DNA of 64,000 nt from a virus. Under the pieces are notes generated by a model. The model searched no databases, was not told the origin of the DNA, and was given only the letters and a program-made list of their open reading frames with translations. Position numbers and translations under genes: made by a program. Location of the stretch: positions 1 to 64,000 of IMG/VR virus record IMGVR_UViG_3300042869_000676; one strand, 5' to 3'. Shown here piece after piece: positions 12,016 to 56,704 of the stretch (its first letter is position 1; each line of letters begins with the position of its first letter).

Positions 12016-12017
12016 AG

Positions 12018-12064
12018 TGGCGCATTCTTAGGGTTGTGGCGCATTGTTTCGGTTATGGCGCATT
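12018..12064 (+). repeat. TGGCGCATT x3 at 19-bp spacing
   Basis: Copies start at 12018, 12037, 12056. Confidence 0.85.
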
Positions 12065-12068
12065 TTTC

Positions 12069-12127
12069 GTGGAACATCTTTGCGTTGTGGAACATTTTTG
12101 TGGAACATCTTTAGCTTCGTGGAACAT
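12069..12127 (+). repeat. GTGGAACAT x4 (parS half-site quartet 1)
   Basis: Copies at 12069, 12087, 12100, 12119. Confidence 0.9.
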
Positions 12128-12159
12128 TTGATTTTTTAATCTTTTTTTAAGAAAAGGTA

Positions 12160-12188
12160 TTGACCAGAGGTTAAAAATCATTTTTAAT
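12160..12188 (+). promoter_or_regulatory. sigma70-type promoter
   Basis: TTGACC-17-TTTAAT, ATG 8 nt downstream. Confidence 0.6.
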
Positions 12189-12196
12189 TCTGGGGT

Positions 12197-12424
12197 ATGA
12201 ATGAAACACCAATTAAAAAAGGCAGAGGTCGCCCCGCTGGTGGCACCTCTTTTGTAAACGTGTCTATCGCTGACTTGAAACGGTTCGGAGAAATTCCTGT
12301 TCCTGTTTCTCGCGTGTGGCTTGAAAAAATGGGCTTGACGGTCGCAACAATCTCACCCATTGTTAGCGAAGTTAAACAAGAAATTGCTCCCGCTATTGAA
12401 TTCAAATTGACCCAACTAAACTAA
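12197..12424 (+). CDS. small AT-hook DNA-binding protein
   Basis: KKGRGRPAG motif. Confidence 0.6.
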   Translation: MNETPIKKGRGRPAGGTSFVNVSIADLKRFGEIPVPVSRVWLEKMGLTVATISPIVSEVKQEIAPAIEFKLTQLN

Positions 12425-13362
12425 TGAAAGCTCGTTTCTCCAACCTAATCGGCCAAACTGATGTCAAGAAGAAGTTCGATTTCTATCTCGACTCTCAGAA
12501 TCAATCACAACGTTTTCCTTTTGTTTTGCTCACGGGCGCAAAGGGAATGGGCAAGACCGAGTTCGCCAAAGAAGCGGCTCGATCTATCGTTGGGAAAAGT
12601 GGCGAAGCTCGCCCATTTCTTGAGATCAACTGCGGCACAATCAAAAACGCGCAAATGTTCTTTGAGCAAGTGTTCGCACCTGTGATTCAAAACAATGAAG
12701 TTACTGTTCTGCTGGATGAGTGTCATGCTCTGCCCAAAGACTTAATGACTGTGCTTCTCTCTGCTTTTAACACTGAGAAAACTGAGCGCAAACAAATCTC
12801 TTGGAAGGACGGACTCTACGAGTTCAATTTCAAGATGCAGAGTTTCATGTTGGCAACGACTGAACAAGATCGTTTGTTTGGCCCATTGAAAGATCGTTTG
12901 CTGTCGATTGATTTTCAAGCCTACTCTGTGGCGGAAACTGCTGAGATTATCAAACGCGCATTCCCTGACATTAGTTTTGAAGGTGATGTGCTTAGTCTCG
13001 TTGCCAAAACTGTTCGTGGAAATGCTCGCTCTGCTATCCAACGCGCAAAACAGATTGAGATGTATTGCCAGACGAAACACAAGAAAACGTTTGACGTTGC
13101 TGACTGGACTTCACTCTGCGACAAGATCGGCATCAACTCATCTGGTCTTTCTAATTCTGAGATTCAAGTGTTGACAACTCTTAAACAGCGCGGCGACTGC
13201 TCGCTTTCAATGTTGAGCGCAGTCACAGGTATGTCTCGCTCTGCGCTTCAACGCGACGTGGAAATCTTCCTCTTGCAGCGCGGTTACATGAAGATCGAAG
13301 GTTCCAGAAAGATTACCGCAGAAGGTGTCAAGGCTTTGTCTGCTATCGAGGAGAAAAAATAA
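12424..13362 (+). CDS. ruvB: RuvB-like Holliday junction branch-migration ATPase
   Basis: FSNLIGQ, Walker A GAKGMGKT, Walker B LLDECH, PLKDRL, RGNAR, C-terminal VEIFLLQRGY...SRKITAEG winged helix. Confidence 0.8.
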   Translation: MKARFSNLIGQTDVKKKFDFYLDSQNQSQRFPFVLLTGAKGMGKTEFAKEAARSIVGKSGEARPFLEINCGTIKNAQMFFEQVFAPVIQNNEVTVLLDECHALPKDLMTVLLSAFNTEKTERKQISWKDGLYEFNFKMQSFMLATTEQDRLFGPLKDRLLSIDFQAYSVAETAEIIKRAFPDISFEGDVLSLVAKTVRGNARSAIQRAKQIEMYCQTKHKKTFDVADWTSLCDKIGINSSGLSNSEIQVLTTLKQRGDCSLSMLSAVTGMSRSALQRDVEIFLLQRGYMKIEGSRKITAEGVKALSAIEEKK

Positions 13363-13386
13363 AAAGAAAAAAGATAGGAAAAGGTA

Positions 13387-13416
13387 TTGACGAGTGCAGA
13401 AAAATCCTCACACTCA
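13387..13416 (+). promoter_or_regulatory. putative sigma70-type promoter for ncRNA cluster
   Basis: A-rich UP element, TTGACG, CACACT at 16-nt spacing. Confidence 0.5.
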
Positions 13417-13430
13417 TTTTCGTTGAGGTC

Positions 13431-13823
13431 ATCTGACTCCCGCCCCCCACGCCTGACAATACTAGGTGGGGCGGGAAATCAGGTTGTTCTTTCTAATTTT
13501 GGTTGAGAAAAAGAGTATCGAGCGCGGCGAAGAGCCAAGCGACGCCTAATCGACCAAAATTTTGTAACGCTAAAAATCCCAAGCAAGAGTGCTTCTATGT
13601 GAAAACGGTAAAAGTCCGTCACGGGAGGTAAAGCCACGAATAGAGGCTTACTCGTTACAATCTAATTTTTGTGGTGAAGCAAAGTATGGAGCAGCCCTTC
13701 CTAGTGCTGGGTATTAGCGGTTGAAAACTACCGCCGCCACATTAAAACTTTCCTCAATCCGCCGATCCACATTGGCTGGTGAGGAACCCTGGAAGTGGGT
13801 CGCGCATACTTTAATCACGCGAA
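13431..13823 (+). ncRNA. cluster of at least five structured non-coding RNA elements
   Basis: ORF-free 500 bp with successive elements each closed by a terminal stem and separated by AATTTT linkers. Confidence 0.65.
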
Positions 13824-13875
13824 TAATTTTGCTAGCTAAACTAAACAATAACTGATTGCTTAACTAAATACTAAA

Positions 13876-14331
13876 ATGCCTAACTGGTGCCAAAACAACA
13901 TCGCCATCTCTGGTGATTTAAATAAATTTAAAACGTGGCTTAACGGTGAACCGTTCAGCCTGAATAAGATTGTGCCAATGGATCAAATCTTATTGGAAGA
14001 TGAAGGCTGGCATAATTGGCGCATCGAGAATTGGGGAACTAAATGGGACGTGGACGTAGAGGCTGAAATCACTTTCAGCGGAGACAGTGCGATACTTATC
14101 CACTTCAACAGTGCGTGGGGACCGCCTAACTTAGCTATCGCTAAGCTCTCAGAATCTTTTCCAGAGATTACAATTGAACACTCTTATCTTGAAGAAGGTA
14201 TGTGCTTTGTTGGCAAAGATGTCTATTCTAATGGCGCTCTTCGTAACGCAGTATGCTACGAAGACCCTAGCAAAGAAGAGTGGAAAGAACTTGCCACTGC
14301 TGAATTTAACTGGGAACCTTACGAGGAATAA
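13876..14331 (+). CDS. YubB/DUF1281 ferredoxin-like domain protein
   Basis: MPNWCQN, WRIENWGTKWD, FNSAWGPP, YLEEGMCFVG. Confidence 0.8.
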   Translation: MPNWCQNNIAISGDLNKFKTWLNGEPFSLNKIVPMDQILLEDEGWHNWRIENWGTKWDVDVEAEITFSGDSAILIHFNSAWGPPNLAIAKLSESFPEITIEHSYLEEGMCFVGKDVYSNGALRNAVCYEDPSKEEWKELATAEFNWEPYEE

Positions 14332-14336
14332 AACTT

Positions 14337-14522
14337 ATGGCTAAAACTAAAACCAAAACAACTTATGCTTTCTCTGTTAATTTTTATAATTTGCTTGAAG
14401 CTGCTTCTCAGGAAGAAGCCGAAAAGCAGGTATTAGAAATTCTCCGCCAAGCTGTAGAAAAGAAAGACCTCTCAGACTTTGAGATTTACTCCCATAGCAA
14501 AGATTACTTTTTAATTCACTAA
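14337..14522 (+). CDS. hypothetical protein
   Basis: ORF track, operon packing. Confidence 0.6.
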   Translation: MAKTKTKTTYAFSVNFYNLLEAASQEEAEKQVLEILRQAVEKKDLSDFEIYSHSKDYFLIH

Positions 14523-14523
14523 A

Positions 14524-14694
14524 ATGCCCCTACCAGAAGAAGCAACTTCCACAATGAATACACTGCGATTCATTTACAGTAAGTATAAAGCTGAATTCGA
14601 TAAAGCTCTCAAGTATGATGAGAAGAAAGATCGCAAGTATCAGAACGAAATGAGGAAATTGCAACGAGAAAAGCTTAAACAACAAATAGCTTAA
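14524..14694 (+). CDS. small hypothetical protein (56 aa, not in ORF track)
   Basis: MPLPEEATST...KLKQQIA*, 1 nt after previous stop. Confidence 0.5.
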   Translation: MPLPEEATSTMNTLRFIYSKYKAEFDKALKYDEKKDRKYQNEMRKLQREKLKQQIA

Positions 14695-14701
14695 TAGTTT
14701 A

Positions 14702-14776
14702 GTCCTTATCGTATAACGGATAATACAAGGCTCTTCTAAAGCCTCAATGAAAGTTCGATTCTTTCTGGGGACACCA
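14702..14776 (+). tRNA. tRNA-Arg(UCU)
   Basis: GTCCTTA/TGGGGAC acceptor, anticodon loop CTTCTAA, GTTCGATT, encoded CCA. Confidence 0.9.
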
Positions 14777-14778
14777 TC

Positions 14779-14851
14779 GGGCAGATAGCTTAGTGGTTAA
14801 AGCAAAGAACTCATAATTCTGTGATCGGGGGTTCAAGTCCCTCTCTGCCCA
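14779..14851 (+). tRNA. tRNA with CAU anticodon (Ile2 or elongator Met)
   Basis: GGGCAGA/TCTGCCC acceptor, loop CTCATAA, GGTTCAAGTCC; CCA not encoded. Confidence 0.9.
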
Positions 14852-14865
14852 TTTCTTTAGAGACA

Positions 14866-14985
14866 AAAGGTGAACCACTTATCTCTTAATACTAAAAGAC
14901 GAAAGCTGAACTAGATAATACTTAATAACGAAAGGTGAACTACTTAATACGTAATAACGAAAGGTGAATGCGTTAATAAGTAATA
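14866..14985 (+). repeat. 29-bp tandem repeat ACGAAAGSTGAA-N5-TAATAMNTAATA (3 copies plus one degenerate)
   Basis: Units at 14899, 14928, 14957; AAAGGTGAA also at 14866. Confidence 0.85.
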
Positions 14986-14994
14986 ATAAAAACA

Positions 14995-15093
14995 GGGGTA
15001 GGTAGGGGTAGGTAGGGGTAGGTAGGGGTAGGTAGGGGTAGGTAGGGGTAGGTAGGGGTAGGTAGGGGTAGGTAGGGGTAGGTAGGGGTAGGT
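14995..15093 (+). repeat. (GGGGTAGGTA) x ~10 tandem array
   Basis: Direct reading. Confidence 0.95.
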
Positions 15094-15129
15094 GAATTGA
15101 GATTGGTTCTCAGTCTCAACGGTGGAGCA

Positions 15130-15159
15130 GAAAAAACCCGCCCTTTTCGGGGCGGGTCG
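15130..15159 (-). terminator. intrinsic terminator (identical to 19124-19153)
   Basis: ACCCGCCC-TTTTCG-GGGCGGGT hairpin with A6 on + strand. Confidence 0.85.
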
Positions 15160-15177
15160 CTTTGGCGATCTCTGCGA

Positions 15178-15975
15178 TTAGTTAGCGCCGATCTCGGCAG
15201 GCAAAACAACGTTGATTCCTGCGAATGGGTCGAGGACGCTGTGAAGGATCGAGGACCGAATCGGGAGAGCGTTCAAATTCCCCTTGTAGATTTCGGTGAA
15301 GGCATTGTGAAGGCTCCAGAGGTTGCGCGGTGCAAACTCTTCGTGCAAGGGCTTGTCCCACTGGTCGAGCACATCGGCGATCATATTTTTGCCGATTGCG
15401 CCAGACCGATAAGAGCGCAAGATGAGGTTTCCAGCGGTCTCGTCGTCGAGATTCGTGTTCGTGTATTTTTTGACGCGGGTCTCGTGGTTCGTCCACATCT
15501 CGCCAAGCTTACCAAGCGCTTCGCCCATTTTCTTGGGTAGGTCGAGCATGATGTTGGTGGTGTGGCGGCGACCGATCACAATTTCGTTGTGGAAAACAAG
15601 ATTGTCGCAGACGAAAGGTGCGTTGCCAGCGCAAATGCCAGCGCGAAAATCTTTGCAGTGCGAGTTACGCAAGCCGACAACGGTGCCAGAGGTAGCGCCG
15701 TCTTTTTTCATGTCGATCTGAAACAAGCCAAAGTAATTTTGACCATATTTTGCAAGGGTGTGGTGTTCTTTGATTACGCTCAGGCCTTTTTCTGCGAGCT
15801 GGTCGCGGAAAATTTCGACCATGCGATTGTGGCTCACTGGCACGAAGCTGCGGGTAGTTTCGGGCAAGGGGACGTTGCCGATATCGGCAAATTCTACGGC
15901 GACGTTTCTGCCTCCTGCAACGTGCAGGTTCAACTCGCGCTTCTGATTAACTTGGGGGACATTTACAGTTTCCAT
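15178..15975 (-). CDS. DUF932-like protein
   Basis: PVSHN, GLRNSH, FVCDNLVF, RRHT, NLWSLHNAFTE motifs. Confidence 0.75.
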   Translation of the reverse strand: METVNVPQVNQKRELNLHVAGGRNVAVEFADIGNVPLPETTRSFVPVSHNRMVEIFRDQLAEKGLSVIKEHHTLAKYGQNYFGLFQIDMKKDGATSGTVVGLRNSHCKDFRAGICAGNAPFVCDNLVFHNEIVIGRRHTTNIMLDLPKKMGEALGKLGEMWTNHETRVKKYTNTNLDDETAGNLILRSYRSGAIGKNMIADVLDQWDKPLHEEFAPRNLWSLHNAFTEIYKGNLNALPIRSSILHSVLDPFAGINVVLPAEIGAN

Positions 15976-16211
15976 TTTTTTGTGTGTTTTATTGGTTGCG
16001 ACTAGGTGATCTAGTCGATGAGGAAAAACTGAAGTATCTGTTTAGACCGTGCAAGCCTTTTTGACGAATTAGTTGAAAAGAATCTTTGGGTATTTTTGCG
16101 GAAGGTGTTGACAAGTGCTTTGATTTTTTGTTGGGAAAATTGCGCGGCGCGCTTATATCAGAAAATGGCGCAAAGTCAACCCGGTATTTTTCTTTTTAGA
16201 AATTATTTATT

Positions 16212-16240
16212 TTGACAACGGTGTTTTATTCTGGTAAAAT
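16212..16240 (+). promoter_or_regulatory. near-consensus sigma70 promoter with no downstream ORF
   Basis: TTGACA-17-TAAAAT with TG extension and AT-rich UP element. Confidence 0.75.
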
Positions 16241-16246
16241 AAAACA

Positions 16247-16297
16247 GGGGTAGGAAAATTTTGATTAGGGGTAGGTAGGGGTAGGGGTAGGAAAATT
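16247..16297 (+). repeat. short GGGGTA/GGAAAATTT array
   Basis: Four GGGGTA units with AAAATTT linkers. Confidence 0.9.
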
Positions 16298-16313
16298 TGT
16301 TCCACGTGGAACA
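16298..16313. promoter_or_regulatory. parS: parS-type centromere site
   Basis: Perfect palindrome TGTTCCACGTGGAACA (extends to 20 bp, 16296-16315), a well-known chromosomal parS variant. Confidence 0.75.
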
Positions 16314-16339
16314 AAAAAAGCGAGGCAGTTACGCCTCGC
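16313..16339 (-). terminator. intrinsic terminator
   Basis: GCGAGGC-6-GCCTCGC with A7 on + strand. Confidence 0.75.
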
Positions 16340-16368
16340 AAATTTTGGATGAATTATTTATTTAAAGA

Positions 16369-16560
16369 TTAACTTTTTTGAATTGGAATGAATAGTTTAG
16401 TTACTCGTTGATTTCTAGGGTGGTTCATATAATTTAAAGATATAGAATGTCCTTTGATTTTATCAATCTTCGCCTCCATACGAGTAAGGAGCCTTCGATC
16501 TTTTTCGTTTTGAGCGATCATGCAGATGCTCATTGTATCTTCTTTAACGGATGTTTTCAT
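16369..16560 (-). CDS. hypothetical protein
   Basis: Last gene of - strand mini-operon. Confidence 0.6.
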   Translation of the reverse strand: MKTSVKEDTMSICMIAQNEKDRRLLTRMEAKIDKIKGHSISLNYMNHPRNQRVTKLFIPIQKS

Positions 16561-16567
16561 GTTTCGT

Positions 16568-16846
16568 TTAGTTTTTTTGTTTTATGTATTTCTCCATCTC
16601 GTCCCGAATTTCGTCGGGCATGAAGCAAGAAAAGTATTTTTCAGAACTAGATCCTTTCCAGTCCCAGATTGAGCAGTCGTGGTTTTGACCATCTAATTCC
16701 GCTGTGAAATACCAGACGGCGCAACATTTTCCATCTATGCTCGCAGTAGGTTGAAAGCCGAGAGCATTTGAAATTTCGTCGATGGTGAAGCCAAAGATAG
16801 TTCCGGTTTTGTAATTGTTTCCGATTTCTGCGGGTGTGATTCTCAT
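16568..16846 (-). CDS. hypothetical protein
   Basis: DGKC...W...CSIWDWK motif; coupled to hydrolase gene. Confidence 0.65.
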   Translation of the reverse strand: MRITPAEIGNNYKTGTIFGFTIDEISNALGFQPTASIDGKCCAVWYFTAELDGQNHDCSIWDWKGSSSEKYFSCFMPDEIRDEMEKYIKQKN

Positions 16847-17280
16847 TTGTAAAAAATATGATTTTCGATTGTAACTGTTGCAAGCATTTTTTTATTCCAA
16901 GATGGATTTATTTTTGTCGTGTGATAAAACTGTGCGTTTTTCGTGTAATTAGTGGAGCCAAGATTTTGAGCAATTTTGAGAGCGTTTGACCATTTCTTGT
17001 GTTTCTTTGCTTTGTTGATCTCAGCTTCAACATCTTTGCCGTTCCAACAAGAGAACTGTTTGCGCTGCAAACAAACTTGCATTGGCGAAAGTTTGCGCGA
17101 GATTGAACGGTTGTAAATCACTTCGGCAACAGCAGACATTGCGCGAAAATCGCGCTCGCCGCCAGCCTCGGCAATCAAAGTTGCGGCGACAATCTCAGTT
17201 GCGCTGACTGTTACAACCGATTTGCTGTGCAATGAGTTCAGCCCAGAAAAAAACGCGAGGAGAAGGCAAAGGGATTTCAT
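16843..17280 (-). CDS. cell wall hydrolase, SleB/Hydrolase_2 family
   Basis: Signal peptide, TLIAEAGGE, AVAEVIYNR, QFSCWN, FYH...PSW...IENHIFYK. Confidence 0.88.
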   Translation of the reverse strand: MKSLCLLLAFFSGLNSLHSKSVVTVSATEIVAATLIAEAGGERDFRAMSAVAEVIYNRSISRKLSPMQVCLQRKQFSCWNGKDVEAEINKAKKHKKWSNALKIAQNLGSTNYTKNAQFYHTTKINPSWNKKMLATVTIENHIFYK

Positions 17281-17368
17281 TTTTGTTGAGGTGTTGAATG
17301 GTTTGGTAACGGGAAAAGTTGTTTGCGATAAAGATTTCAGCGAGTTCGTATTCGTTCATTTTTTTTGA

Positions 17369-17389
17369 GGGGTAGGGGTAGGAAAATTT
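17369..17389 (+). repeat. GGGGTAGGGGTAGGAAAATTT mini-element
   Basis: Same unit as the 17790 array. Confidence 0.85.
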
Positions 17390-17621
17390 AACCAGACGAG
17401 TCAGCCCAGAAAGCTAATTTCTTAGATGGCGAAATGTAAAGGGATTCGTGCATAGAAAGCCGAATTTCTTTCAAGTCGGTTACGTCGGACAAAACGGCGG
17501 GGCGAGTTTTCCAGCCGTTTGCTGCGCCAAGATTAGTATAGCCAAGTACGTCGTTGAAAAAATTAACTTCAATTTTTTCGCCGTTTAACAAGAGGGTTTT
17601 TTTTCCGTGAATGTTGGTCAT
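17388..17621 (-). CDS. hypothetical protein, leaderless
   Basis: TTGCAA-17-TAGTTT (17656-17628), 6 nt before ATG. Confidence 0.65.
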   Translation of the reverse strand: MTNIHGKKTLLLNGEKIEVNFFNDVLGYTNLGAANGWKTRPAVLSDVTDLKEIRLSMHESLYISPSKKLAFWADSSG

Positions 17622-17789
17622 GGCTAAAAACTATTTTTTTTTCGTGGTGGTTGCAAGTTTTTTTTTAGATTTATTTTTTATTTTTTGAGAAAAAAGCTTG
17701 ACAAGAGTTTCGGCAAATAGTAAAGGTGAATGAGTTCTGTTCTAATAACAAACATGAAAGGTGAACGTGTTAATACCTAATAACAAATC

Positions 17790-17954
17790 TAGGGGTAGGA
17801 AAATTTTTAGGGGTAGGGGTAGGAAAATTTTTAGGGGTAGGGGTAGGGGTAGGAAAATTTTTAGGGGTAGGGGTAGGAAAATTTTTAGGGGTAGGGGTAG
17901 GAAAATTTTTAGGGGTAGGGGTAGGGGTAGGAAATTTTTAGGGGTAGGGGTAGG
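17790..17954 (+). repeat. compound array [(GGGGTA)n GG AAAATTTTTA], n=1,2,3,2,2,3,2
   Basis: Direct reading, 15 GGGGTA units. Confidence 0.95.
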
Positions 17955-17988
17955 CGTTTTGAGATTAGGTCTCAACTTCAATAAACGG

Positions 17989-18050
17989 CGTGGAACATTT
18001 CGGCACCGTGGAACATTTTCGTGGAACATTTCGCGCAGCGTGGAACATTT
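17989..18050 (+). repeat. CGTGGAACATTT x4 (parS half-site quartet 2)
   Basis: Copies at 17989, 18007, 18020, 18039. Confidence 0.92.
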
Positions 18051-18135
18051 TGGCGTGCCAACCTCGTTTTTTTAGCAAAGATTTTTTTTTATTTTTTAGT
18101 CGTTTTTTTTCGTTGGGTGTGGTTTATTTCCTGCG

Positions 18136-18852
18136 ATGAAAAAAACACTTCCCTTGCTTGCTTTCGGCGCGGACGCGAAAACGTCAAAAGGCGCTTTGCT
18201 TAATTACTTGACGGGCATTTTATACTTGGCTCCGGCCAATGAAGGAGGATTTGGAAATCTTTGCGTGAATGCTTCGGCGGGTTGTCTCTTGTCCTGCCTT
18301 TTCACGGCGGGGCGGGGTCGGATGTCAAACGTTCGCCTCGGTCGAATTCGGAAGACACGTTTATTTTTTACGGATAAAAAAGCATTTTTTGAACAGTTAG
18401 AAAAGGACATCGCGCGCGGCATGAAACGGGCGGCGAAATTGGGGCTAGGGTATTGCGTGCGGCTGAACGGGACGAGCGACGTTCCCTGGGAACGTTTGGG
18501 GATTTTCGAAAAATTTCCGTCCGTGCAATTTTATGATTACACGAAAAGCGTTTCGCGTGCGCTCGCGCACGCTCGCGGGGAAATGCCGTCGAATTATTAT
18601 TTGACGTTTTCGCGCTCTGAATCAAACGAAACGGACGCGCTCGCAGTGTTGGCTGCGGGCGGCAACGTTGCGGCGGTGTTTTCCTCGCCGAATTACCCGC
18701 AAACGTGGAAAGGGTTTGAAGTGGTGGACGGTGACAAGTCGGATCTGCGTTTTTTAGACAAGCGGGGCGGCGCTGTGGTTGCGTTGTATGCGAAGGGAAA
18801 AGCGAAAAAGGACGCAAGCGGCTTCGTCATTCAAACGGGGGGCGGCGCGTGA
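18136..18852 (+). CDS. GP88-like protein (Cys motif, radical-SAM-like)
   Basis: ILYLAPA, LCVNASAGCLLSCLFTAGRG, VRLNGTSD, QFYDYTK, NYYLTFS.SE, DGDKSDLRFLD, KGKAKKD. Confidence 0.7.
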   Translation: MKKTLPLLAFGADAKTSKGALLNYLTGILYLAPANEGGFGNLCVNASAGCLLSCLFTAGRGRMSNVRLGRIRKTRLFFTDKKAFFEQLEKDIARGMKRAAKLGLGYCVRLNGTSDVPWERLGIFEKFPSVQFYDYTKSVSRALAHARGEMPSNYYLTFSRSESNETDALAVLAAGGNVAAVFSSPNYPQTWKGFEVVDGDKSDLRFLDKRGGAVVALYAKGKAKKDASGFVIQTGGGA

Positions 18853-18920
18853 TTTCTTTTATCGTCTTTTTGGTGGTGCTCTGGTTTATGCTATCAAAGC
18901 AAAGGGCCAAGCGATAAAAC

Positions 18921-18952
18921 GGGGCGGGCCTAGCGGCTCGCCTCTTTTTTTT
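18921..18952 (+). terminator. intrinsic terminator
   Basis: GGGGCGGGCC-TAGC-GGCTCGCCTC then T8. Confidence 0.8.
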
Positions 18953-19001
18953 GTGCGCGTGTGCGCGTGTGCGCGTGTGCGCGTGTGCGCGTGTGCGCGT
19001 G
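18952..19001. repeat. (TGTGCGCG) x6 alternating purine-pyrimidine tract
   Basis: Direct reading. Confidence 0.95.
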
Positions 19002-19006
19002 ATGCG

Positions 19007-19120
19007 TAGGGGTAGGGGTAGGGGTAGGGGTAGGGGTAGGGGTAGGGGTAGGGGTAGGGGTAGGGGTAGGGGTAGGGGTAGGGGTAGGGGTAGGGGTAGG
19101 GGTAGGGGTAGGGGTAGGGG
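19007..19120 (+). repeat. (TAGGGG) x19 perfect array
   Basis: Direct reading. Confidence 0.95.
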
Positions 19121-19123
19121 CAC

Positions 19124-19153
19124 GAAAAAACCCGCCCTTTTCGGGGCGGGTCG
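19124..19153 (-). terminator. intrinsic terminator (identical to 15130-15159)
   Basis: GAAAAAACCCGCCCTTTTCGGGGCGGGTCG. Confidence 0.85.
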
Positions 19154-19177
19154 TTGGTTGCGTTGCGTTGCTTTGCG

Positions 19178-19708
19178 TTAGCTTACGCGGCGCACGCTCC
19201 GCACCGCAATCAAATTTTTTTCCCCTAGCGTATAACAAGCAAATTCCTTTTTCTCGGCAAATTCAGACGCGAGGCAAAGGGACTCGATCACGGCACGGGA
19301 GACGCTTTTCCCGTTGAGACGGAAAACGGTTTTGCAAGCGCGGGGCGTGCCGTCGCTGTTGTTCACGGGGTAAAGGCGGAGATAGAAAGCTCCCTTGTGC
19401 TCTATCAAACGATTCTCCATGCCGTCAACCCATTTGCCCCACGGTAAACCCTGATTCTCTGCGGGCGCGTCGCCATTGGCGCGGGCCTCGATGACCGATT
19501 GGCGGTTGTCGTGCTTTGCGCCGACTTGAACCGTTGAGCGGACTGATTTTGTGATGATGTCGGAAACTCCTTTGCGGGTTTTCATCGGGCGGCTCCATGA
19601 GACGCCAACAAATTGACCGGCGGGCACGCTCAAAAGTGCGGCGGCGATTGGTGACAAGGTGGCGGTTGCGGTTGCGGTTGCGGTGGCGGTGGCGGTGGCT
19701 GTTTTCAT
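19178..19708 (-). CDS. conserved phage hypothetical protein with N-terminal Thr-Ala repeat
   Basis: LPWGKWV...LIEHKGAFYLRLYP motif; own promoter region and terminator. Confidence 0.7.
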   Translation of the reverse strand: MKTATATATATATATATLSPIAAALLSVPAGQFVGVSWSRPMKTRKGVSDIITKSVRSTVQVGAKHDNRQSVIEARANGDAPAENQGLPWGKWVDGMENRLIEHKGAFYLRLYPVNNSDGTPRACKTVFRLNGKSVSRAVIESLCLASEFAEKKEFACYTLGEKNLIAVRSVRRVS

Positions 19709-19816
19709 ATGTGTTTTTTTTGTGTTGTTGTTGGTAACGAAAAACAGCGTGCATTTTTATTTGCCGAATTCAAGAAAAAAATCGCACGAACTATTTTTTT
19801 ATTTTTAGAAATTCGC

Positions 19817-19846
19817 TTGACACGTTTTTTGTTTTTTTGGTAGGAT
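19817..19846 (+). promoter_or_regulatory. sigma70-type promoter pointing into palindrome array
   Basis: TTGACA-18-TAGGAT with TG extension; no ORF downstream. Confidence 0.55.
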
Positions 19847-19854
19847 GCGAAAAA

Positions 19855-20005
19855 CACTATAGCGAATTCTATAGTGGCGCGAGGAAATGATATAGCGTTG
19901 TATCAAAAATGATATAGCACTATATCAAAAAGTATATAGCGCTATATACACCCCCCGCCCTTATATAAAAAAGTATATAGCGAATTGTATAGGGCGCGGG
20001 GGGGG
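19855..20005. repeat. array of five TATAGC-core palindromes plus C/G-rich inverted repeat
   Basis: 19855-19876, 19888-19905, 19910-19927, 19932-19949, 19973-19991; CCCCCCGCCC at 19951 vs GGGCGCGGGGGGGG at 19992. Confidence 0.88.
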
Positions 20006-20241
20006 ATGGTAATTCCTCACTCTACCATCAATTTAAACCATCTTAATTTAATTACCCCCAAGGCTATCTTTACTTATCTCACTTACATTTACTTGCTTTA
20101 CTTACCCTTGATTAGCTTATATATCTTACCTGTATATAAACATACCTAAAAGAAACACTATCCCCCCACCCTTTTCTGAGAAAATGAGAAAATATCTAAA
20201 AGAATAGGAACAAAAACTCACTTTCCGGGCGGGGGAGAATT

Positions 20242-20838
20242 TTACCTAGCCTTTGGCTTAATTCCTTCTTCTTCTAGCTGTTTATCATAGGCTAAAGAAA
20301 CGAGCATAGCTTCTTCATGTGTTTCAAAATAACCTAAATGTTTGCCGCATCTTTTAACACGGTATTTTTTAGATCCATCTTTAAACGTTAATATGAATAT
20401 TCCGTACTTATAATTTTTTAGTTTTTTATTGTTATTATTTTGCTTCATAGTAACTTCATATAAATTAGATATAGAGTTATTTAAGGGATTTTTATCTCTA
20501 TGATCTACAAGCATATTTATTTCAGGCCAACGCTTGTGATACATAGTATATAGCAAAGTATGAACATGGTGATTTTTTCTTTTAAACGAGGTCCTTTTGT
20601 ATCCGTTCCATATACTAGTAATCTCTTTGCCTGAATTTCTGTTAGTTAATGTGCCTTTTTCAAAATCAGCGATAAATGACTCCGACAAATCTTCTGGAGT
20701 TGGTCTATTTTTGTATTCAAAATAAAGCTTTACAAACTCGTCTATATCCATATGCTGGCTTCTTTTATAACGAAAAATCGCATCTTTTTCTTGAAAAGAC
20801 ATAGATAGCTCTTCTGGCTGTTGATTTTCTTGATTCAT
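20242..20838 (-). CDS. HNH homing endonuclease
   Basis: VDHRDKNPLNNSISNL and C-terminal HLGYFETHEEA (AP2-like). Confidence 0.85.
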   Translation of the reverse strand: MNQENQQPEELSMSFQEKDAIFRYKRSQHMDIDEFVKLYFEYKNRPTPEDLSESFIADFEKGTLTNRNSGKEITSIWNGYKRTSFKRKNHHVHTLLYTMYHKRWPEINMLVDHRDKNPLNNSISNLYEVTMKQNNNNKKLKNYKYGIFILTFKDGSKKYRVKRCGKHLGYFETHEEAMLVSLAYDKQLEEEGIKPKAR

Positions 20839-20841
20839 AAA

Positions 20842-21546
20842 TTAACCTTCGTTGAAAAATTCTCCGTGTAATTTTCGACCTATTTCATCTCGCCAAGCTT
20901 TAAGTATTTGAATTGTAGCTTCAACAAATTCTTTTTTAACAGTCATCGACTTGAAATATTTCTTCCCATTACAAGAAACACAAGCATCAACACGCACGCG
21001 ATCATCAGAAATAGAACGCACAAAAACACCTTTTACCCCTGATTTGTTACTTTCGTACAATGATTTGTTACTGGCGTTTTGAGAATTAGTACTTTCTCTT
21101 AGATTGCAAGGTCTATTATCTGTTTTATCTTCATTTATATGATCTACCTTATAGCCTTTTTTGGCCCAACGACCATTATGTAAACAAAAAATAATTTTAT
21201 TAAGAAAAACCGTAAAATAATAACCCTCAAATTTTATACTGGCTACTATATATCCCTGACGTTTTAAAAAGCCAACTTTATCACCAGCCTTTTTATTACC
21301 ACTGTTGTTTTTTAAAAACAAATTTCCATCTTCGTCATGATAATACATCTTAGCTAATTGTTCTGGAGAAATAACATCTTCAATCCTTTTTTTTGGCCCC
21401 TTATACTCCCAAACATCCATTGCATAGTTGAAGTTTTCTATTCCGCCGATTCTTTTTACTAAGAGTCTAATTTCAGCAAGCATTTCTGCCGTCACAATTA
21501 ACTCTTTTTTTTGATTTGTTTGTTTTGCTTTTTTAGTTAGCGCCAT
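20842..21546 (-). CDS. HNH homing endonuclease
   Basis: VDHINEDKTDNRPCNLRE...NKSGVKGV. Confidence 0.88.
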   Translation of the reverse strand: MALTKKAKQTNQKKELIVTAEMLAEIRLLVKRIGGIENFNYAMDVWEYKGPKKRIEDVISPEQLAKMYYHDEDGNLFLKNNSGNKKAGDKVGFLKRQGYIVASIKFEGYYFTVFLNKIIFCLHNGRWAKKGYKVDHINEDKTDNRPCNLRESTNSQNASNKSLYESNKSGVKGVFVRSISDDRVRVDACVSCNGKKYFKSMTVKKEFVEATIQILKAWRDEIGRKLHGEFFNEG

Positions 21547-42423: not shown

Positions 42424-44400
42424 ATGGGAGTTTACTATCTAGGAGCAAGTCCTCAACAAGTTGATTTTCAAATCGTTGATGTTGATACTGGCGTTTTCTT
42501 AAACGCGCAGAGTGGCATAGCTTATAGTTCAACTCGCTTAAGCGGGCAGCTTTCATCTTATTACGCAGACGCATCTAATCTAACTGGAACTGCAAATTTA
42601 CCTTCTGGTGTTTTTGGTACATTAGATGTTGATTCGTTTATTAGAAATGTATCAACCAAGTTCGTTGATTATACAGTTTCTACTGCTGACGATGTTATTA
42701 TCTCAAGTTCAGCTGATCCAAAGACAATTAGTTTAATCTACGCTTCTGGCAACGCTGGAAGACAGTTTGTAATCAAAAATAAAGGAGCTGGAACTGTTAC
42801 AGTTAACGCTTCTGGAGTTGGTCAGATTGATGGCGCAGATACTTATTCTTTGCCGCAATATCAATCTATATCTGTGTTTAGCGATGGATCAACTTGGAAC
42901 GCTGATGCTGGTAAGCAAGGCATTCAAGGTATTCAAGGCTTGCAGGGCGTACAAGGAACTCAGGGTCCACAGGGAACTCAAGGCGTTCAGGGTACGCAAG
43001 GCGTTCAAGGAACTCAAGGCGTTCAGGGTACGCAAGGTTTACAAGGCCCACAAGGAACGCAGGGTGTTCAAGGTACTCAAGGTTTGCAAGGCCCACAAGG
43101 AACTCAAGGAGTTCAAGGTACACAAGGCGTTACTGGTTCGCAAGGCTCAACAGGCGCAACTGGAGCACAAGGAACTACTGGAGCTACAGGCGCGCAGGGA
43201 ACTACTGGTACTAACGGCGCTACAGGTTCACAAGGCTCAACAGGAGCTACTGGCTCGCAAGGCGCTCAAGGAACGCAAGGAAGAACAGGCGCGCAGGGGA
43301 CGACAGGCGCAACAGGTAATACTGGTAATACCGGTTCGCAAGGTGCAACAGGTTCAACTGGATCTACAGGCGGTACAGGCGCTACAGGCGCGCAGGGGGC
43401 GACAGGCGCAACAGGTAATACTGGTAATACTGGTTCACAAGGCGCGACTGGCTCAACTGGATCTACAGGATCAACTGGCGCAACAGGAGCGCAGGGAATT
43501 TCTGGCGCAACAATAGACAATACAGAAAGAACTTTATCCCGTTTATCTTTCACGGGTGTTGGTGGAAATTCTAATGTAACTTTTGGAGCAAATCACTATT
43601 CAATTGGTCAAGCTGGAGGAGGTTGGGATTATCCATATCCAGATTTAATTATTGGTTACCATACAGGTATTCGCATTGGTGGGTACTGGAATTACGGCGG
43701 TACAAGATTCTATAATGATTCACCAACTTCTAATGGTGGTGCCGAAGCTGAATTAATGTCGATAGGTAATGGAGATAATAACGTAAGAGTTCAAAATACA
43801 ATTTATGCCGCAGTTTTTTCCGATATTAACAATACTGCATATTATTTAGATCCAAATTCAAACTCCAATTTTGCTGGATCTATAAGCGTTAGCCAAAATA
43901 ACGCTTCGGGTGGAGGCATCATTCTCGCTGATGATGGCGACATTGTTGATTTGAATGACGCTTACTGTTCAATGCGATTTACCTCTGGAGTTCGTATTTT
44001 TAGCGCAAATAGAAGTGGTAGCGCGGTTATTAGTCTAGGAAGTAACGGAGCAATCGTAGCGAATTCTAATATTACCGCTTATGGAAGCGCTTCTGATATT
44101 AGATTAAAAGAAAATATTGTTCGTATTGATAACGCATTAAATAAGGTAATGCAGATAAATGGTTATTATTTTAACTATACTGGTAAAACTGAACGTATGG
44201 TTGGCGTTGTCGCGCAGGAAATTGAACCAGTTTTAAAAGAAGTCGTATATGAATACGAAAATATCGAAACAAAAGAAAAGAACAAAGCTGTTTACTACGG
44301 AAATATCACAGCTCTTCTTATCGAAGCGATGAAAGAGCAGCAAGCTACCATCGAATCACTAAAAGACCGCATTTTAGTGCTGGAAAACATTAAAAACTAA
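42424..44400 (+). CDS. collagen-like fibre with C-terminal intramolecular chaperone (Peptidase S74)
   Basis: G-X-Y repeats; SDIRLKENI...GVVAQE...LLIEAMKE. Confidence 0.85.
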
Positions 44401-44418
44401 TTTAAAATATATAAATTT

Positions 44419-44778
44419 ATGGCTATCACATATACATGGAAAGTAACAGGTATCAAGGTAAAAGACGAAGGCGCAAATAAGAACGCTATCGTTCAAACCT
44501 ACTGGAAAAAAATCGGTACAGACGAAAACGGCAACGTTGGAGAATTCTCTGGCGCTACTCCTTTCACAAGCGCGAACGTTCCTGACGGACAGTTCGTTGC
44601 ATTTGAAACTCTTACTGAAGCTAATGTTATCGCGTGGGTTCAAAGTGTCGTAACTGGCAGCTACGAAGAGCACGTTAACGAGCAAATCGCCAAGCAACTC
44701 GCTAAGAGCGATCCAGTAGAAATCAAAATGCCTTGGGATACTGGTGTTGCCCCTTCTGGCTCTGCTCCAACCCCATAA
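44419..44778 (+). CDS. fibre-associated small protein
   Basis: MAITYTW...F..LTEANVIAWV...MPW family common next to phage fibres. Confidence 0.6.
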   Translation: MAITYTWKVTGIKVKDEGANKNAIVQTYWKKIGTDENGNVGEFSGATPFTSANVPDGQFVAFETLTEANVIAWVQSVVTGSYEEHVNEQIAKQLAKSDPVEIKMPWDTGVAPSGSAPTP

Positions 44779-44893
44779 GTTAGGTTGAGTTTATATAGCA
44801 GCTATGTTTTAGCCTTAAATGGTTAAAATATAGTTCGTTTTATGCTCAATTTAACTGTAAATCTAGTTATCGGATTAAGGTAACTATAATAAC

Positions 44894-47800
44894 ATGGGTA
44901 AATACTACTTAGGTTCTCAATCAGGCGCGCAGGTAAACTTCTCAGTAGCAGATGCTACTGGAGTTATTAGCGACTTGAACTTAAGCGGTCTTTATCTTAG
45001 CGTAACTGGTAAAGCCGCCGATTCTGCGAAACTTAACGGAACTGGCGCTGACTATTATCGAAATGCTGGTAACTTAACTGGCTATATATTTGTTGATACA
45101 ACAGGAATCACAAATGATATTACTGGTTTATTAGATCTTCCTAATAACTACCTTTCAATTACTGGTAAAGCTGCCGATTCTAATCTCTTAGATGGATATG
45201 ATAGCTCTTATTTTAGAGATGGAAGTAATATTACAGGAAATGTAGTATTAAGCGGCGTTTTTACTGGTCTATTTAGCGGCGCAATATCTCATACTGATTA
45301 TGTTGATTTCCATACTGGAACAACGTTTGGTTCACTTCCAGCTCGTTTAAAATGGAACGAAGAAGATGGAACAATTGACCTTGGATTAAAAGGCGGAAAC
45401 GTAGTTCTTCAAGTTGGTCAAGATGCTGTTTCTTATGTATCAAATGCAGAAGCGACAACTCTTAATAAAGGTGAAGTTGTTTACTTATTCGGCGCTCATG
45501 GAGATCGCGCTTCTGTAAAAAGAGCTTCTAATTCTACTGAAGCTACATCAAGCAAAACATTAGGTGTTGTATTAGAATCTATTGCTCCAAACGGTGTTGG
45601 ATTTGTAATGTCTAACGGTGTTGTTGAAGGGCTTTCTCTTGGAAGTTTTCAAGCTGGTGATTCTGTTTGGCTAGGCTCAACACCCGGCACTTTTACTGCA
45701 ACTAGAGCGCTCGCTCCAAGTCATCTTGTTTTCATTGGTGTTATAGCTAGAGCAAATAACGGTAACGGTCAATTATACGTTAAAGTTCAAAACGGTTTTG
45801 AACTAAACGAAATTCATGACGTAAAAATTACTGGTTTAGCTAACAACGATTTCTTAATTTATAATAGCGGCTCTGGTCTTTGGGGAAATAAACAAGCTGA
45901 TGCTTCAATTATTGTTAACACTCCGTACAGCGGAATTTCTTCAACTAATGTTCAAGATGCAATCAACGAATTAGAAGATGAAAAACTTTCAATCACAGGA
46001 AAAGCTGTTGATTCAGATTCTTTAGACGGAAATGATTCAACGTATTATAGAAACGCCGCAAACTTAAGTGGTGTTGCTACTTTACCTTCTGGCGTTTTCA
46101 ATTATCTTAATGTTACTGGAACTCTTGACGCCGATTCTTTTGTTAGAAACGTAAATGTAAAAACTGGTCACTATACTTTAACAACTAGTGATGATAATAT
46201 TGTTTTTGATTCCGCTACTCCATATACTGCCACTTTAATCTCAGCTTCTTCTAATGTTGGTCGCCAATTTGTTATCACAAACAAAGGATCTGCGCAAATT
46301 ACTGTTGACGCTACTTACAATGGGCAAATTGATGGAGCTAATGCTTATTACTTAGAACAGTATAAGACTCTTGTTTTAATTAGTGATGGCGCAACTTGGA
46401 ATTCTGTTGGTGGTAGCCAAGGCGTTCAAGGCTCTCAAGGATTACAAGGCGTTCAAGGAACTCAAGGCGTTCAAGGAACGCAAGGAGTTCAAGGAACGCA
46501 AGGTGTTCAGGGCACACAAGGTATTCAAGGCACTCAAGGAGTTCAAGGTACGCAAGGAATTCAAGGATTGCTTGGTATTCAAGGAGCCGAAGGCGCGCAA
46601 GGCATTCAAGGAATTCAAGGTGTTCAAGGAACAACTGGTATTCAAGGATCTGCTGGTTATATCGGCGCAGACGGTTCTCAAGGCACTTTTGGTTCGCAAG
46701 GCACACAAGGAACTCAAGGAATTCAAGGTCTTCAAGGACTTGAAGGCTCACAAGGAACTCAAGGAGTTCAAGGCGTTCAAGGCGTTCAGGGAACTCAAGG
46801 CGTTCAAGGCGTTCAAGGATTGCAGGGCGTTCAAGGAACACAAGGAATTCAAGGCACTCAAGGCTTAGAAGGCTTACAAGGCGTTCAAGGCACACAAGGA
46901 GTTCAAGGAATTACTGGCGCTCAAGGAGCAACAGGCTCACAAGGAGCGCAGGGAACTCAAGGTATTCAAGGCTTAGAAGGTGCGCAAGGTACACAAGGAG
47001 TTCAAGGAACACAAGGAATTCAAGGATTAGAAGGACTGCAAGGCGTTCAAGGCACACAAGGAATTCAGGGCGTTCAAGGCACTCAAGGCGTTACTGGTTC
47101 TCAAGGTGCAACAGGCTCACAAGGCACTCAAGGCACTCAAGGAGTTCAAGGAATTACTGGATCACAAGGCGCACAAGGTACTCAAGGCGTTCAAGGCACT
47201 CAAGGTGTTCAAGGCGACAGAGGTATTGAAATTTCTACTTCTGCAACTGCTCCAGTTTCTGCTGAAGCTAATGATCTTTGGTGGAATTCTTCTGACGGTA
47301 ATTTAAATATTTATTATAGCAGCAATTGGGTAGAAGCTTTCTCTGCTATCGCTGGTCCACAAGGAACAACTGGTGGACAAGGTGTAACAGGCGCACAAGG
47401 AACTGCTGGAACATTCGGCGGCGCTGCTTTCGATTATACTTTCAGCGACTCAACAACTGACGCTGACCCAACATCTGGTAAACTTCGTTTAAATAACGCT
47501 CTATTCTCTTCTGCTACTGAATTATACATTAGCCAAACAGACGATTTAAGCGTTTCTATATACAATTTCTTACAGACCATTGATGATTCTACTTCTGCAA
47601 TCAAAGGTCACTTCTCGATCACTAGCAAAACAACTCCAGCTAATTCTGTTTTATTTAGTATCACTGGAAGTCATACTCATGCGACAAATTACTTTAAAGT
47701 TCCAGTAAGTAAATTATCTGGCGTAAATTCTTTCTCAAACAACGAAGACATTGTAATTACTTTTGCTAGAACTGGTGACGTTGGTGACGCTGGCGCTCAA

Positions 47801-50800: not shown

Positions 50801-50860
50801 AACCTAGTTGCAGAACTTCAATCCCTACGCGCCCGCGTAGCCGCACTCGAAACCAACTAA
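44894..50860 (+). CDS. 1988-aa collagen-like fibre with GNVGIGT repeats and S74 chaperone
   Basis: Several long G-X-Q tracts, two DLWWNS domains, SDYRRKSNV...GFVAHE. Confidence 0.85.
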
Positions 50861-50905
50861 TATACCTATTAGAAACTAACAGAAATTAATGTAAAATAAT
50901 ATAGT

Positions 50906-53629: not shown

Positions 53630-53635
53630 TTTAAA

Positions 53636-56600: not shown

Positions 56601-56704
56601 TGGATACTGAATGGACAGACGAAAATGGTAAAGTAATTGTTGAGCCTTTAAAACCAGTTAAAGAATTAGCAAGCGATAGTGAAACAACAGAAACTAATTC
56701 TTAA
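53636..56704 (+). CDS. collagen-like fibre with GNVGIGT repeats
   Basis: G-X-Y tract, six G.VGIG repeats, C-terminal [11 protein letters not shown]...LVHSFIEGP...YRG domain. Confidence 0.85.

Follow-up and report, generated by a model that had tools for sequence, protein, structure and literature searches.

One-directional arrays of parS half-site boxes mark a variable region in a family of lake-water phages

INTRODUCTION

In bacteria, FtsK is oriented by the FtsK-orienting polar sequences (KOPS; GGGNAGGG), and RuvAB acts as a branch-migration motor. Origins of the iteron type are known from the four iterons of lambda ori and from the iteron arrays of P1 and of plasmids. Here we describe a stretch of about 8 kb, positions 12,018 to 20,005 of the IMG/VR virus record IMGVR_UViG_3300042869_000676, in which arrays of a short box, GTGGAACA(T/A)TTT, lie in the spacers between genes, one of them upstream of an operon for a small protein, p75, and a RuvB-like ATPase. 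The window analyzed is the first 64 kb of this 75,627-bp virus contig (referred to here as G000), and motif counts were made on the whole contig.

The box is also half of a parS site. The 16-mer TGTTCCACGTGGAACA, found once on this contig, is identical to the parS of Pseudomonas aeruginosa (PMC4368675), and in that species the ParB protein binds half-sites in vivo (GTTCCAC/GTTTCAC), from which it does not spread (PMC10419367). The virulent phage phi29 has five parS sites that are used via the host protein Spo0J (PMC2731898). Short motifs repeated between genes are known from other phages as well: promoter-early stem-loop (PeSL) motifs lie in the hyperplastic regions of T4-type phages (PMC2839356, PMC4122927), and the stoperators of cluster A mycobacteriophages are asymmetric sites in many short intergenic spaces (PMC9283540).

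RESULTS AND DISCUSSION

The boxes form co-oriented arrays across the phage family

On the G000 contig, all eight copies of GTGGAACAT are in forward orientation, in two quartets of identical 18/13/19 spacing; a first-pass annotation of this DNA had listed eight parS half-sites in two homologous quartets. The quartets make up repeat family D7, and T-rich DNA follows each of them; at quartet 1 the T-rich tract is followed in turn by the promoter of the p75/RuvB-like operon. About 20 related contigs were gathered through searches with the RuvB-like protein, the box pattern and the hexamer array described below, and they range from 97% nucleotide identity down to ~62% identity in the GP88 protein. 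Quartet 1 is kept in G001, G002, L137, L140, L142 and L143, and quartet 2 in every relative that reaches that place. Three variant boxes immediately before quartet 1 were seen in G000 only and are missing at the homologous place in L009.

Boxes were counted in nine related contigs, each oriented to G000. They proved to be family-wide and strictly polar: all 102 of 102 clustered boxes share one orientation, irrespective of how the flanking genes are transcribed, and the clusters are confined to the syntenic ~8 kb. Distances of 19 and 13 bp alternate, so that two boxes make up a unit of 32 bp, and there are 2, 4, 6, 8 or 10 boxes to a cluster. The extended consensus is yCGTGGAACAwTTT, in which the A after GTGGAAC is invariant (101 of 101 boxes). 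In relatives, the arrays usually stand beside a GC palindrome, CCGGGCC-C/T-GGCCCGG; every spacer of the region there holds boxes, the palindrome or both, and one or the other is found at each cassette junction. Divergence is seen in the spacers between boxes, whereas box sequence and box distance are fixed over the whole range of identities given above, which suggests selection on the boxes.

This conservation bears on the possibility that the repeats have no dedicated binding function and are slippage-prone or selfish sequences or scars of recombination, with a common orientation that arose by gene conversion and tandem duplication. Clusters with even numbers of boxes and a constant 32-bp unit would fit such duplication, and the G-rich arrays discussed below are perfect, strain-specific minisatellites. 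However, fixed boxes between diverged spacers are the mark of selection, and arrays at separate loci have kept one orientation across rearranged cassettes. We regard this explanation as unlikely.

Two more specific readings of the boxes were rejected. Any CGT that resembles a -10 element is spaced 11 or 24 nt from the boxes, which excludes promoters of the extracytoplasmic function (ECF) type, and most boxes start with CGTGG rather than TGTGG, which excludes DnaA boxes.

Outside the family, exact three-box arrays at the family's spacing gave no match in 185,579 bacterial and archaeal species genomes. Direct repeats of GTGGAACAT were found in 66 viral contigs, compared to 4 for a permuted control. 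A reversed-box control motif gave 83 matches, confounded by collagen-type coding repeats, and the enrichment test is therefore a soft one.

Boxes in other arrangements were also encountered. In some 20 other viral contigs, which form a group of their own at ~40% GC, TGTTCCAC/GTGGAACA boxes are crowded into 300 bp, in direct and inverted orientation and 9 to 10 bp apart (loci L012, L015-L017, L021, L024, L026, L030, L037, L039, L040, L049, L054, L055, L060, L068 and L073). L037 was the one member of the group that was checked, and there a gene for a T4-type large terminase is close to the cluster. Possible roles of the cluster are those of an origin, a centromere or a pac region. Different in kind from the box arrays is a long tandem array of 12-nt units (..ACCAAGTGNGGN..), coding in appearance, at positions 700 to 1500 of L153, a relative with 74% identity in the RuvB-like protein; some of its units contain GTGGAAC by chance.

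A two-gene operon, p75 and a RuvB-like ATPase, lies behind quartet 1

The RuvB-like ATPase aligns over its full length (residues 6 to 301) with the RuvB of PDB 1j7k, at 6e-17. It reaches 90 bits with the NCBIfam RuvB model, whose equivalog cutoff is 282, marking it as divergent. Its neighbor p75 matched no known family in family searches and has no detectable similarity to RuvA. The two genes travel together: ~68 of 80 viral loci (L152-L231), down to 47% identity and on contigs of up to ~205 kb from fresh and marine water, have a p75 gene immediately before the RuvB-like gene. A 131-kb Joint Genome Institute (JGI) contig carries a RuvB-like gene that is 96% identical, and a 135-kb contig also encodes a close homologue. 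No annotation of the module beyond "RuvB" was found, and an AT-hook adaptor paired with a RuvB-like ATPase appears to be a widespread and undescribed two-gene module.

Prediction of the complex placed p75 residues 65 to 75 on residues 49 to 93 of the RuvB-like protein with a score of 0.73, the best control scoring 0.00. Of 80 solved complexes, 58 reach that mark, and of 110 mismatched pairs, 2 do; since our own alignments were used, these counts hold approximately. The runs agree in at least 88% of contacts, with a partner pLDDT (predicted local distance difference test) of at least 52. The modeling thus supports binding of the p75 tail to the ATPase. The arrangement resembles RuvAB, in that a RuvB-like ATPase has a small predicted partner, as RuvB has RuvA; it differs in that p75 lacks similarity to RuvA and the ATPase falls far below the RuvB family cutoff.

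A more distant clade is informative. In L190, L192 and L201, a different co-oriented quartet, made of 34- to 35-nt units (TTTGCCTGTGAAT..GCCAAATAA), occupies the same place upstream of the operon, and the p75 core differs as well (VRVN..VVSKKWLEEIGL in that clade versus VNVS..PVSRVWLEKMGL). Different boxes before the same operon point to a reader encoded by the phage rather than by the host. We infer, from the sequences of these two clades, a phage-encoded reader that co-varies with its sites.

The explanation that we favor, and in which our confidence is about evenly balanced, is that the box arrays of a hyperplastic region are sites for a phage-encoded machine, with p75 and the RuvB-like ATPase as the best candidate, and that the G-arrays are recent replacements of the GC palindrome. 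From the anatomy of the arrays, their conservation pattern, their orientation and their linkage to the operon, all observed here, we infer who might bind the boxes and what the complex might do. Within 12.0 to 20.0 kb, short cassettes equipped with a promoter and a terminator apiece would be gained, lost and moved, and the spacers between them bear the family's own repeated DNA elements. The boxes would be assembly sites for a phage-encoded DNA-binding machine, in which p75 contacts DNA through its AT-hook and conserved core and docks on the ATPase with its C-terminal tail. We imagine that the arrays load or orient the RuvB-like ATPase for the start of replication or recombination and that they autoregulate the operon; as dispersed direct repeats, they might also be the recombination points at which cassettes are shuffled. 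The GGGGTA-type arrays, the (TGTGCGCG)6 tract and the TATAGC palindromes would be recent minisatellites or cassette-borne operators. G-arrays in the place of the GC palindrome would probably do the same local job, that of a structure-forming (G-quadruplex) spacer by bidirectional terminators, or none. If the p75/RuvB-like module does read the boxes, it would represent a new kind of oriented DNA-motor system in phages.

Several points weigh against this explanation. The AlphaFold2 model of p75 alone is poor (mean pLDDT 60), too low for a fold search. In the clade of G003 and G004 (~70% identity), whose p75 core is the same and whose variable region contains GTGGAACA boxes, no boxes lie upstream of p75, so that the link as operator or loading site is not universal. 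The association of box type with p75 type rests on two clades and could reflect plain shared ancestry. Unrelated phages also carry GTGGAACA arrays, and in the stretches fetched from unrelated box-bearing contigs neither a p75 nor a RuvB-like gene was found. To our knowledge, RuvB-type ATPases do not act as replication initiators. Finally, an exact 8/8 half-site together with one perfect parS would be an unlikely coincidence if a phage protein were the sole reader.

One can envision a bolder version, which we consider rather improbable. The co-oriented boxes would be polar loading or guiding sites for p75 as adaptor and the RuvB-like hexamer as a motor on double-stranded DNA, moving or processing the phage chromosome in one direction, with a possible link to host ParB via the full parS of this strain. 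The adaptor and hexamer would then be the phage counterpart of KOPS/FtsK or of RuvA/RuvB.

The setting of quartet 1 also recalls iteron origins. Co-oriented direct-repeat quartets adjoin a T/A-rich tract, further arrays are nearby, and the position is directly upstream of an operon for a DNA-handling ATPase; the cumulative GC-skew minimum lies within ~1 to 5 kb of the region in G000, G001 and G002, a weak hint of an origin near the region. Unlike at iteron origins, up to six arrays are spread over 8 kb, and there is no recognized initiator family: searches of the region's proteins found none of the Rep or DnaA type.

A single perfect parS and the case for host ParB

The box is the full 8-nt parS half-site (8/8) plus the central C. 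The one perfect parS of the first-pass annotation was also found: TGTTCCACGTGGAACA occurs at 16298, within a 20-bp palindrome, and it matches the parS pattern tGTTNCACGTGAAACa. A host ParB might load at this site and dwell on the half-sites, and so position, compact or partition the phage DNA; alternatively, the sites might drain ParB from the host origin. The idea is a legitimate one given the half-site identity (with the following A invariant), the match to the published P. aeruginosa site, the half-site binding by its ParB in vivo, the phi29 precedent and the presence of the 16-mer in at least 120 IMG/VR contigs, and the 66 viral contigs with direct repeats of the half-site are in line with it. 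The ParB would have to come from the host, since none was detected on the phage contigs: PF02195 (ParB_N) had no match at an E value of 1 or less in G000 and G001-G005, nor did PF17762 (HTH_ParB) in G000, G001-G003 and G006.

The same 16-mer is carried by two phi29-like podovirus contigs, L029 and L065, which encode a terminal protein, a type B polymerase and a phi29-type capsid. There, perfect TGTTCCACGTGGAACA sites lie directly upstream of ribosome-binding sites, matching the parS/Spo0J strategy of phi29.

On the other hand, the full palindrome was seen in G000 only; among the relatives examined, what is conserved is the head-to-tail half-site array. Binding to half-sites would not call for so strict a 19/13 spacing, for a T-rich flank or for even cluster sizes, and a head-to-tail rhythm is ill suited to a symmetric ParB dimer. 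Arrays with the family's spacing are absent from the species genomes searched, the sister clade has unrelated boxes at the same position, and the reversed-box control softens the enrichment. We view host ParB as the reader of the boxes as doubtful, although the strongest of the alternatives, and host ParB binding at the single parS as possible. If host ParB does read the boxes, the phi29 strategy would extend to large freshwater phages.

G-arrays and other host-like signals are strain-level traits

The first-pass annotation had seen in this stretch host chromosome-management signals of many kinds, among them five co-oriented GGGGTA arrays. The arrays are real: each array listed there is present where stated, well above what chance would yield. 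GGGGTAGG is present 49 times forward and never in reverse, all within five arrays between 14994 and 19120. Strong plus-strand G4Hunter regions fall in four of the five arrays, save two short ones elsewhere (19980-20016 and 66907-66934); array 3 was not flagged. Arrays 1 and 5 are not assembly artifacts, since two independent contigs end inside them: L137 (97% nucleotide identity) breaks off in array 1, and L113 (95 to 100% amino acid identity) in array 5. L113 additionally has the terminator, the 176-amino-acid (aa) cassette gene and the palindrome array.

In the other relatives examined, however, the G-arrays were not found. They are missing from 10 IMG/VR relatives and from five metagenome contigs that are 88 to 98% identical, in which a GC palindrome sits at exactly that place. 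Alignment of the junction behind the AAAGGTGAA module indicates that array 1 stands in for ~70 nt of the close relatives, including the GC palindrome, with the TTGAGA..TCTCAA palindrome retained beside the swap. Such an exchange of a GC palindrome for G-quadruplex-type minisatellites at the strain level amounts to a natural experiment on the interchangeability of non-B DNA.

The arrays had also been taken as a KOPS-like orienting signal. There is a likeness, as GGGTAGGG is part of (GGGGTA)n, whose copies all lie on a single strand; indeed, GGGNAGGG matches 28 times forward and never in reverse. Unlike KOPS, which are dispersed along the replicon, all 28 matches lie inside the five tandem arrays of this one strain, with none elsewhere in 75.6 kb. 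Arrays of at least four (GGGGTA) units occur in 41 other viral contigs, sporadically, in unrelated phages of 29 to 68% GC and often at contig ends, a distribution that excludes a common host signal and that would suit repeats without function. The GGGGTA arrays are thus minisatellites, not a borrowed host signal, and the KOPS likeness is a by-product of the hexamer.

The remaining elements fared variously. The putative Z-DNA-type tract, (TGTGCGCG)x6, is the sole alternating purine/pyrimidine run of at least 16 nt in the contig. Two composite modules of the same order, AAAGGTGAA/TAATA repeats, then a G-array, then a TTGAGA..TCTCAA palindrome, were recovered as repeat families D4 and D6. Unlike the G-arrays, the repeats of module 1, just past the tRNA genes, are kept in relatives (L009, 12217-12341; L058, 1070-1200). 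The AAAGGTGA core of the AAAGGTGAA repeats looks like a Shine-Dalgarno sequence. The phased palindrome array was also recovered (19855-19992), with three of its five palindromes in 22-nt phase. The palindromes said to resemble Fur boxes do not: the best match to the 19-bp Fur consensus GATAATGATAATCATTATC is 12/19, at 15099, equal to that of four unrelated sites in the region. As for strong promoters without an open reading frame (ORF), two near-consensus extended-TG sites with no ORF downstream stand (16212-16240 and 19817-19846), but the class as a whole is not enriched, with 11 promoter-like sites found against 11.3 expected from shuffles.

Judged by comparison of sequences, the GGGGTA arrays, the perfect parS, the Z-type tract, module 2 and the TATAGC palindromes are traits of the strain or lineage. 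Of the proposed host signals, what holds across relatives is the polar box identical to half of parS, in one orientation; the G-arrays, Z tract, TATAGC palindromes and perfect parS are absent. With four of five signal classes absent even from relatives that are 88 to 98% identical, there is no conserved leader system of the kind first proposed. An accumulation of host-like signals in a single genome can fail to hold up in a comparison with close relatives; here one class in five was conserved.

A probable hyperplastic accessory-gene region

On the sequence comparisons, the 12.0 to 20.0 kb stretch is most likely a hyperplastic accessory-gene region of a freshwater phage family. Contigs whose flanks are 92 to 98% identical differ in the order and content of cassettes. 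The DUF932 gene, for example, precedes the hydrolase block in G000 and follows it in G006, and G001 has other genes in place of the 176-aa cassette. GC content is 52% at 15 to 20 kb versus ~38% in the surroundings, which fits acquired cassettes. A staphylococcal-type nuclease is encoded just left of the region, and two HNH_3 endonucleases and a NIF-type phosphatase just right of it. The HNH_3 genes (20242-21546) are ~40% identical in relatives while their neighbors are ~95% identical, which suggests swapped homing endonucleases at an exchange boundary. Between the variable region and these genes lie two conserved non-coding segments (19993-20055 and 20162-20254, 82 to 89% identical in L009) with a GATGGTA..TACCATC inverted repeat and runs of C or G.

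The likeness to PeSL regions is one of layout: short repeated intergenic motifs flank ORFan cassettes between conserved genes, and close relatives differ by indels, swaps and moves. The motifs themselves are unrelated in sequence; a PeSL is a composite of promoter and terminator, whereas the boxes are not promoter-like and stand as 2 to 10 asymmetric copies at 19/13 spacing with a GC palindrome, in one direction regardless of the genes. Stoperators are also asymmetric sites, read by a phage protein as we propose for the boxes, but they are single 13-mers whose orientation follows transcription, whereas the arrays here ignore the direction of flanking genes (PMC9283540).

The family appears to be a freshwater one. 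A 10-kb stretch around the region was found near-verbatim in 24 sequencing runs dated 2016 to 2024, 12 of which may be the source sample; all but one are labeled lake water metagenome, and the remaining one freshwater metagenome. The strictly one-directional parS half-site arrays thus mark a variable region in a phage family seen in lake-water runs over that period. Among 50,697 phage records, megablast with the region found no match. The large terminase of G000 is ~25% identical to those of Bacillus and Clostridium phages, its nearest matches in cultured phages, and had no relative among the bacterial and archaeal species genomes searched. The contig is classed as linear with a CheckV completeness of ~52%, which implies a genome of ~145 kb.

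The original proposal for this stretch was that of a first-injected or terminal-repeat leader. On such a reading, with T5 first-step transfer or the SPO1 host-takeover module as the model, the 12 to 20 kb would be a collapsed long terminal repeat, and its repeats injection-stop or end-protection signals; this is compatible with the other readings. The build of the region, with small cassettes that are self-contained, have strong promoters and terminators and adjoin early-type genes (rIIB, 957-2078), would suit such a leader, as would the sharp break in composition at 20.0 kb and the fact that the contigs of 6 of ~10 relatives end inside the 8 kb. But contig breaks are expected at dispersed repeats and strain-variable cassettes, no contig was classed as bearing terminal repeats, and conservation, which one would expect of a packaging or injection signal, is lacking in most repeat classes. 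In addition, sequence continues past the start of G000 for 35 kb in G001 and 57 kb in G002, and G000 itself has a further 55 kb on the right-hand side. Every assembly thus places the region internally, which is also how a collapsed terminal repeat would look. We consider a terminal leader the least probable of the readings weighed here.

Features of the region

The elements discussed above and the genes between them are listed in Table 1.

Table 1. Coordinates of features in and around the variable region of G000
Feature	Position	Strand	Remarks
Three variant boxes (GTGGCGCAT, GTGGCGCAT, ATGGCGCAT)	12017-12064	+	19-nt period; immediately before quartet 1
Box quartet 1	12068-12128	+	Four (C/T)GTGGAACAT boxes; starts 12069/12087/12100/12119; spacing 18/13/19
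p75, 75-aa protein	12197-12424	+	Invariant RGRP AT-hook, SFVNV..IPVSRVWLEKMGL core, IEFKLT tail
RuvB-like AAA+ ATPase	12424-13362	+	C-terminal winged helix; one-base overlap with p75
ORF-less stretch behind operon promoter copy (GGTATTGAC)	13363-13875	+	Family D14; RNA fold z -3.2
DUF1281_C protein	13876-14331	+	
tRNA-Arg(tct) and tRNA-Met(cat)	14702-14851	+	
Module 1, four 29-nt repeats (G)AAAGGTGAA..TTAATAC..TAATAAC	14865-14990	+	Family D4
G-array 1, (GGGGTAGGTA)x10	14994-15093	+	
TTGAGA..TCTCAA palindrome 1	15097-15119		Related palindrome beside GC palindrome in L138/L148
Terminator hairpin, 30 nt	15130-15159	-	Identical copy at 19124-19153; family D8; copies follow arrays 1 and 5
DUF932-like cassette gene	15178-15975	-	Weak Pfam match
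Near-consensus sigma-70-type promoter (TTGACA-17-TAAAAT, TG)	16212-16240	+	ORF-less downstream
G-array 2	16247-16291	+	
Perfect palindrome, 20 bp, containing TGTTCCACGTGGAACA	16296-16315		Two boxes head to head; chromosomal parS variant
Block of five small genes	16369-17621	-	Includes Hydrolase_2 cell-wall hydrolase, 16843-17280
G-array 3, two units	17369-17380	+	
Module 2, two AAAGGTGAA/TAATA repeats	17721-17787	+	Module 1 duplicate; relatives lack it here
G-array 4, six or seven units of (GGGGTA)2-3 GGAAAATTTTTA	17790-17954	+	Period 24/30 nt; families D1, D3
TTGAGA..TCTCAA palindrome 2	17959-17975		Family D6
Box quartet 2	17989-18049	+	Starts 17990/18008/18021/18040; spacing 18/13/19; upstream of GP88-family gene
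GP88-family (PF17338) gene	18136-18852	+	
(TGTGCGCG)x6 alternating purine/pyrimidine tract	18952-19001		
G-array 5, (GGGGTA)x19	19007-19120	+	Common to independent contig L113
176-aa cassette gene	19178-19708	-	Variable GGTGGC repeat; G000 and L113 lineage only
Near-consensus promoter and five (T)ATATAGC-NN-GCTATAT(A)-type palindromes	19817-19992	+	Families D12, D13, D17
Non-coding boundary element (GGGGGGGATGGTAATTCCTC...)	19993-20055		89% identical in L009; right edge of variable region

Within the ORF-less stretch that follows the operon, a 255-nt segment (13494-13748) is missing in L009 and L010 and 97% identical in L142. It is bounded by TCTAATTTT repeats; an RNA gene and a small insertion element are possible interpretations. 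A search of the region with Rfam returned the tRNAs only, with no match for 13363-13875 or the other ORF-less stretches.

Two observations concern the rest of the contig. Several very large genes at 42424-56704 are packed with collagen-like 9-nt (Gly-X-Y) repeats and probably encode fiber or decoration proteins. The Chi octamer of the E. coli type, GCTGGTGG, is found 12 times forward and once in reverse on the whole contig (for example, at 12236, 30489, 37362, 41642, 50347, 57108 and 65177), compared to ~1 expected per strand; since several copies lie inside the Gly-rich collagen-like genes, this strand excess may be coding bias.

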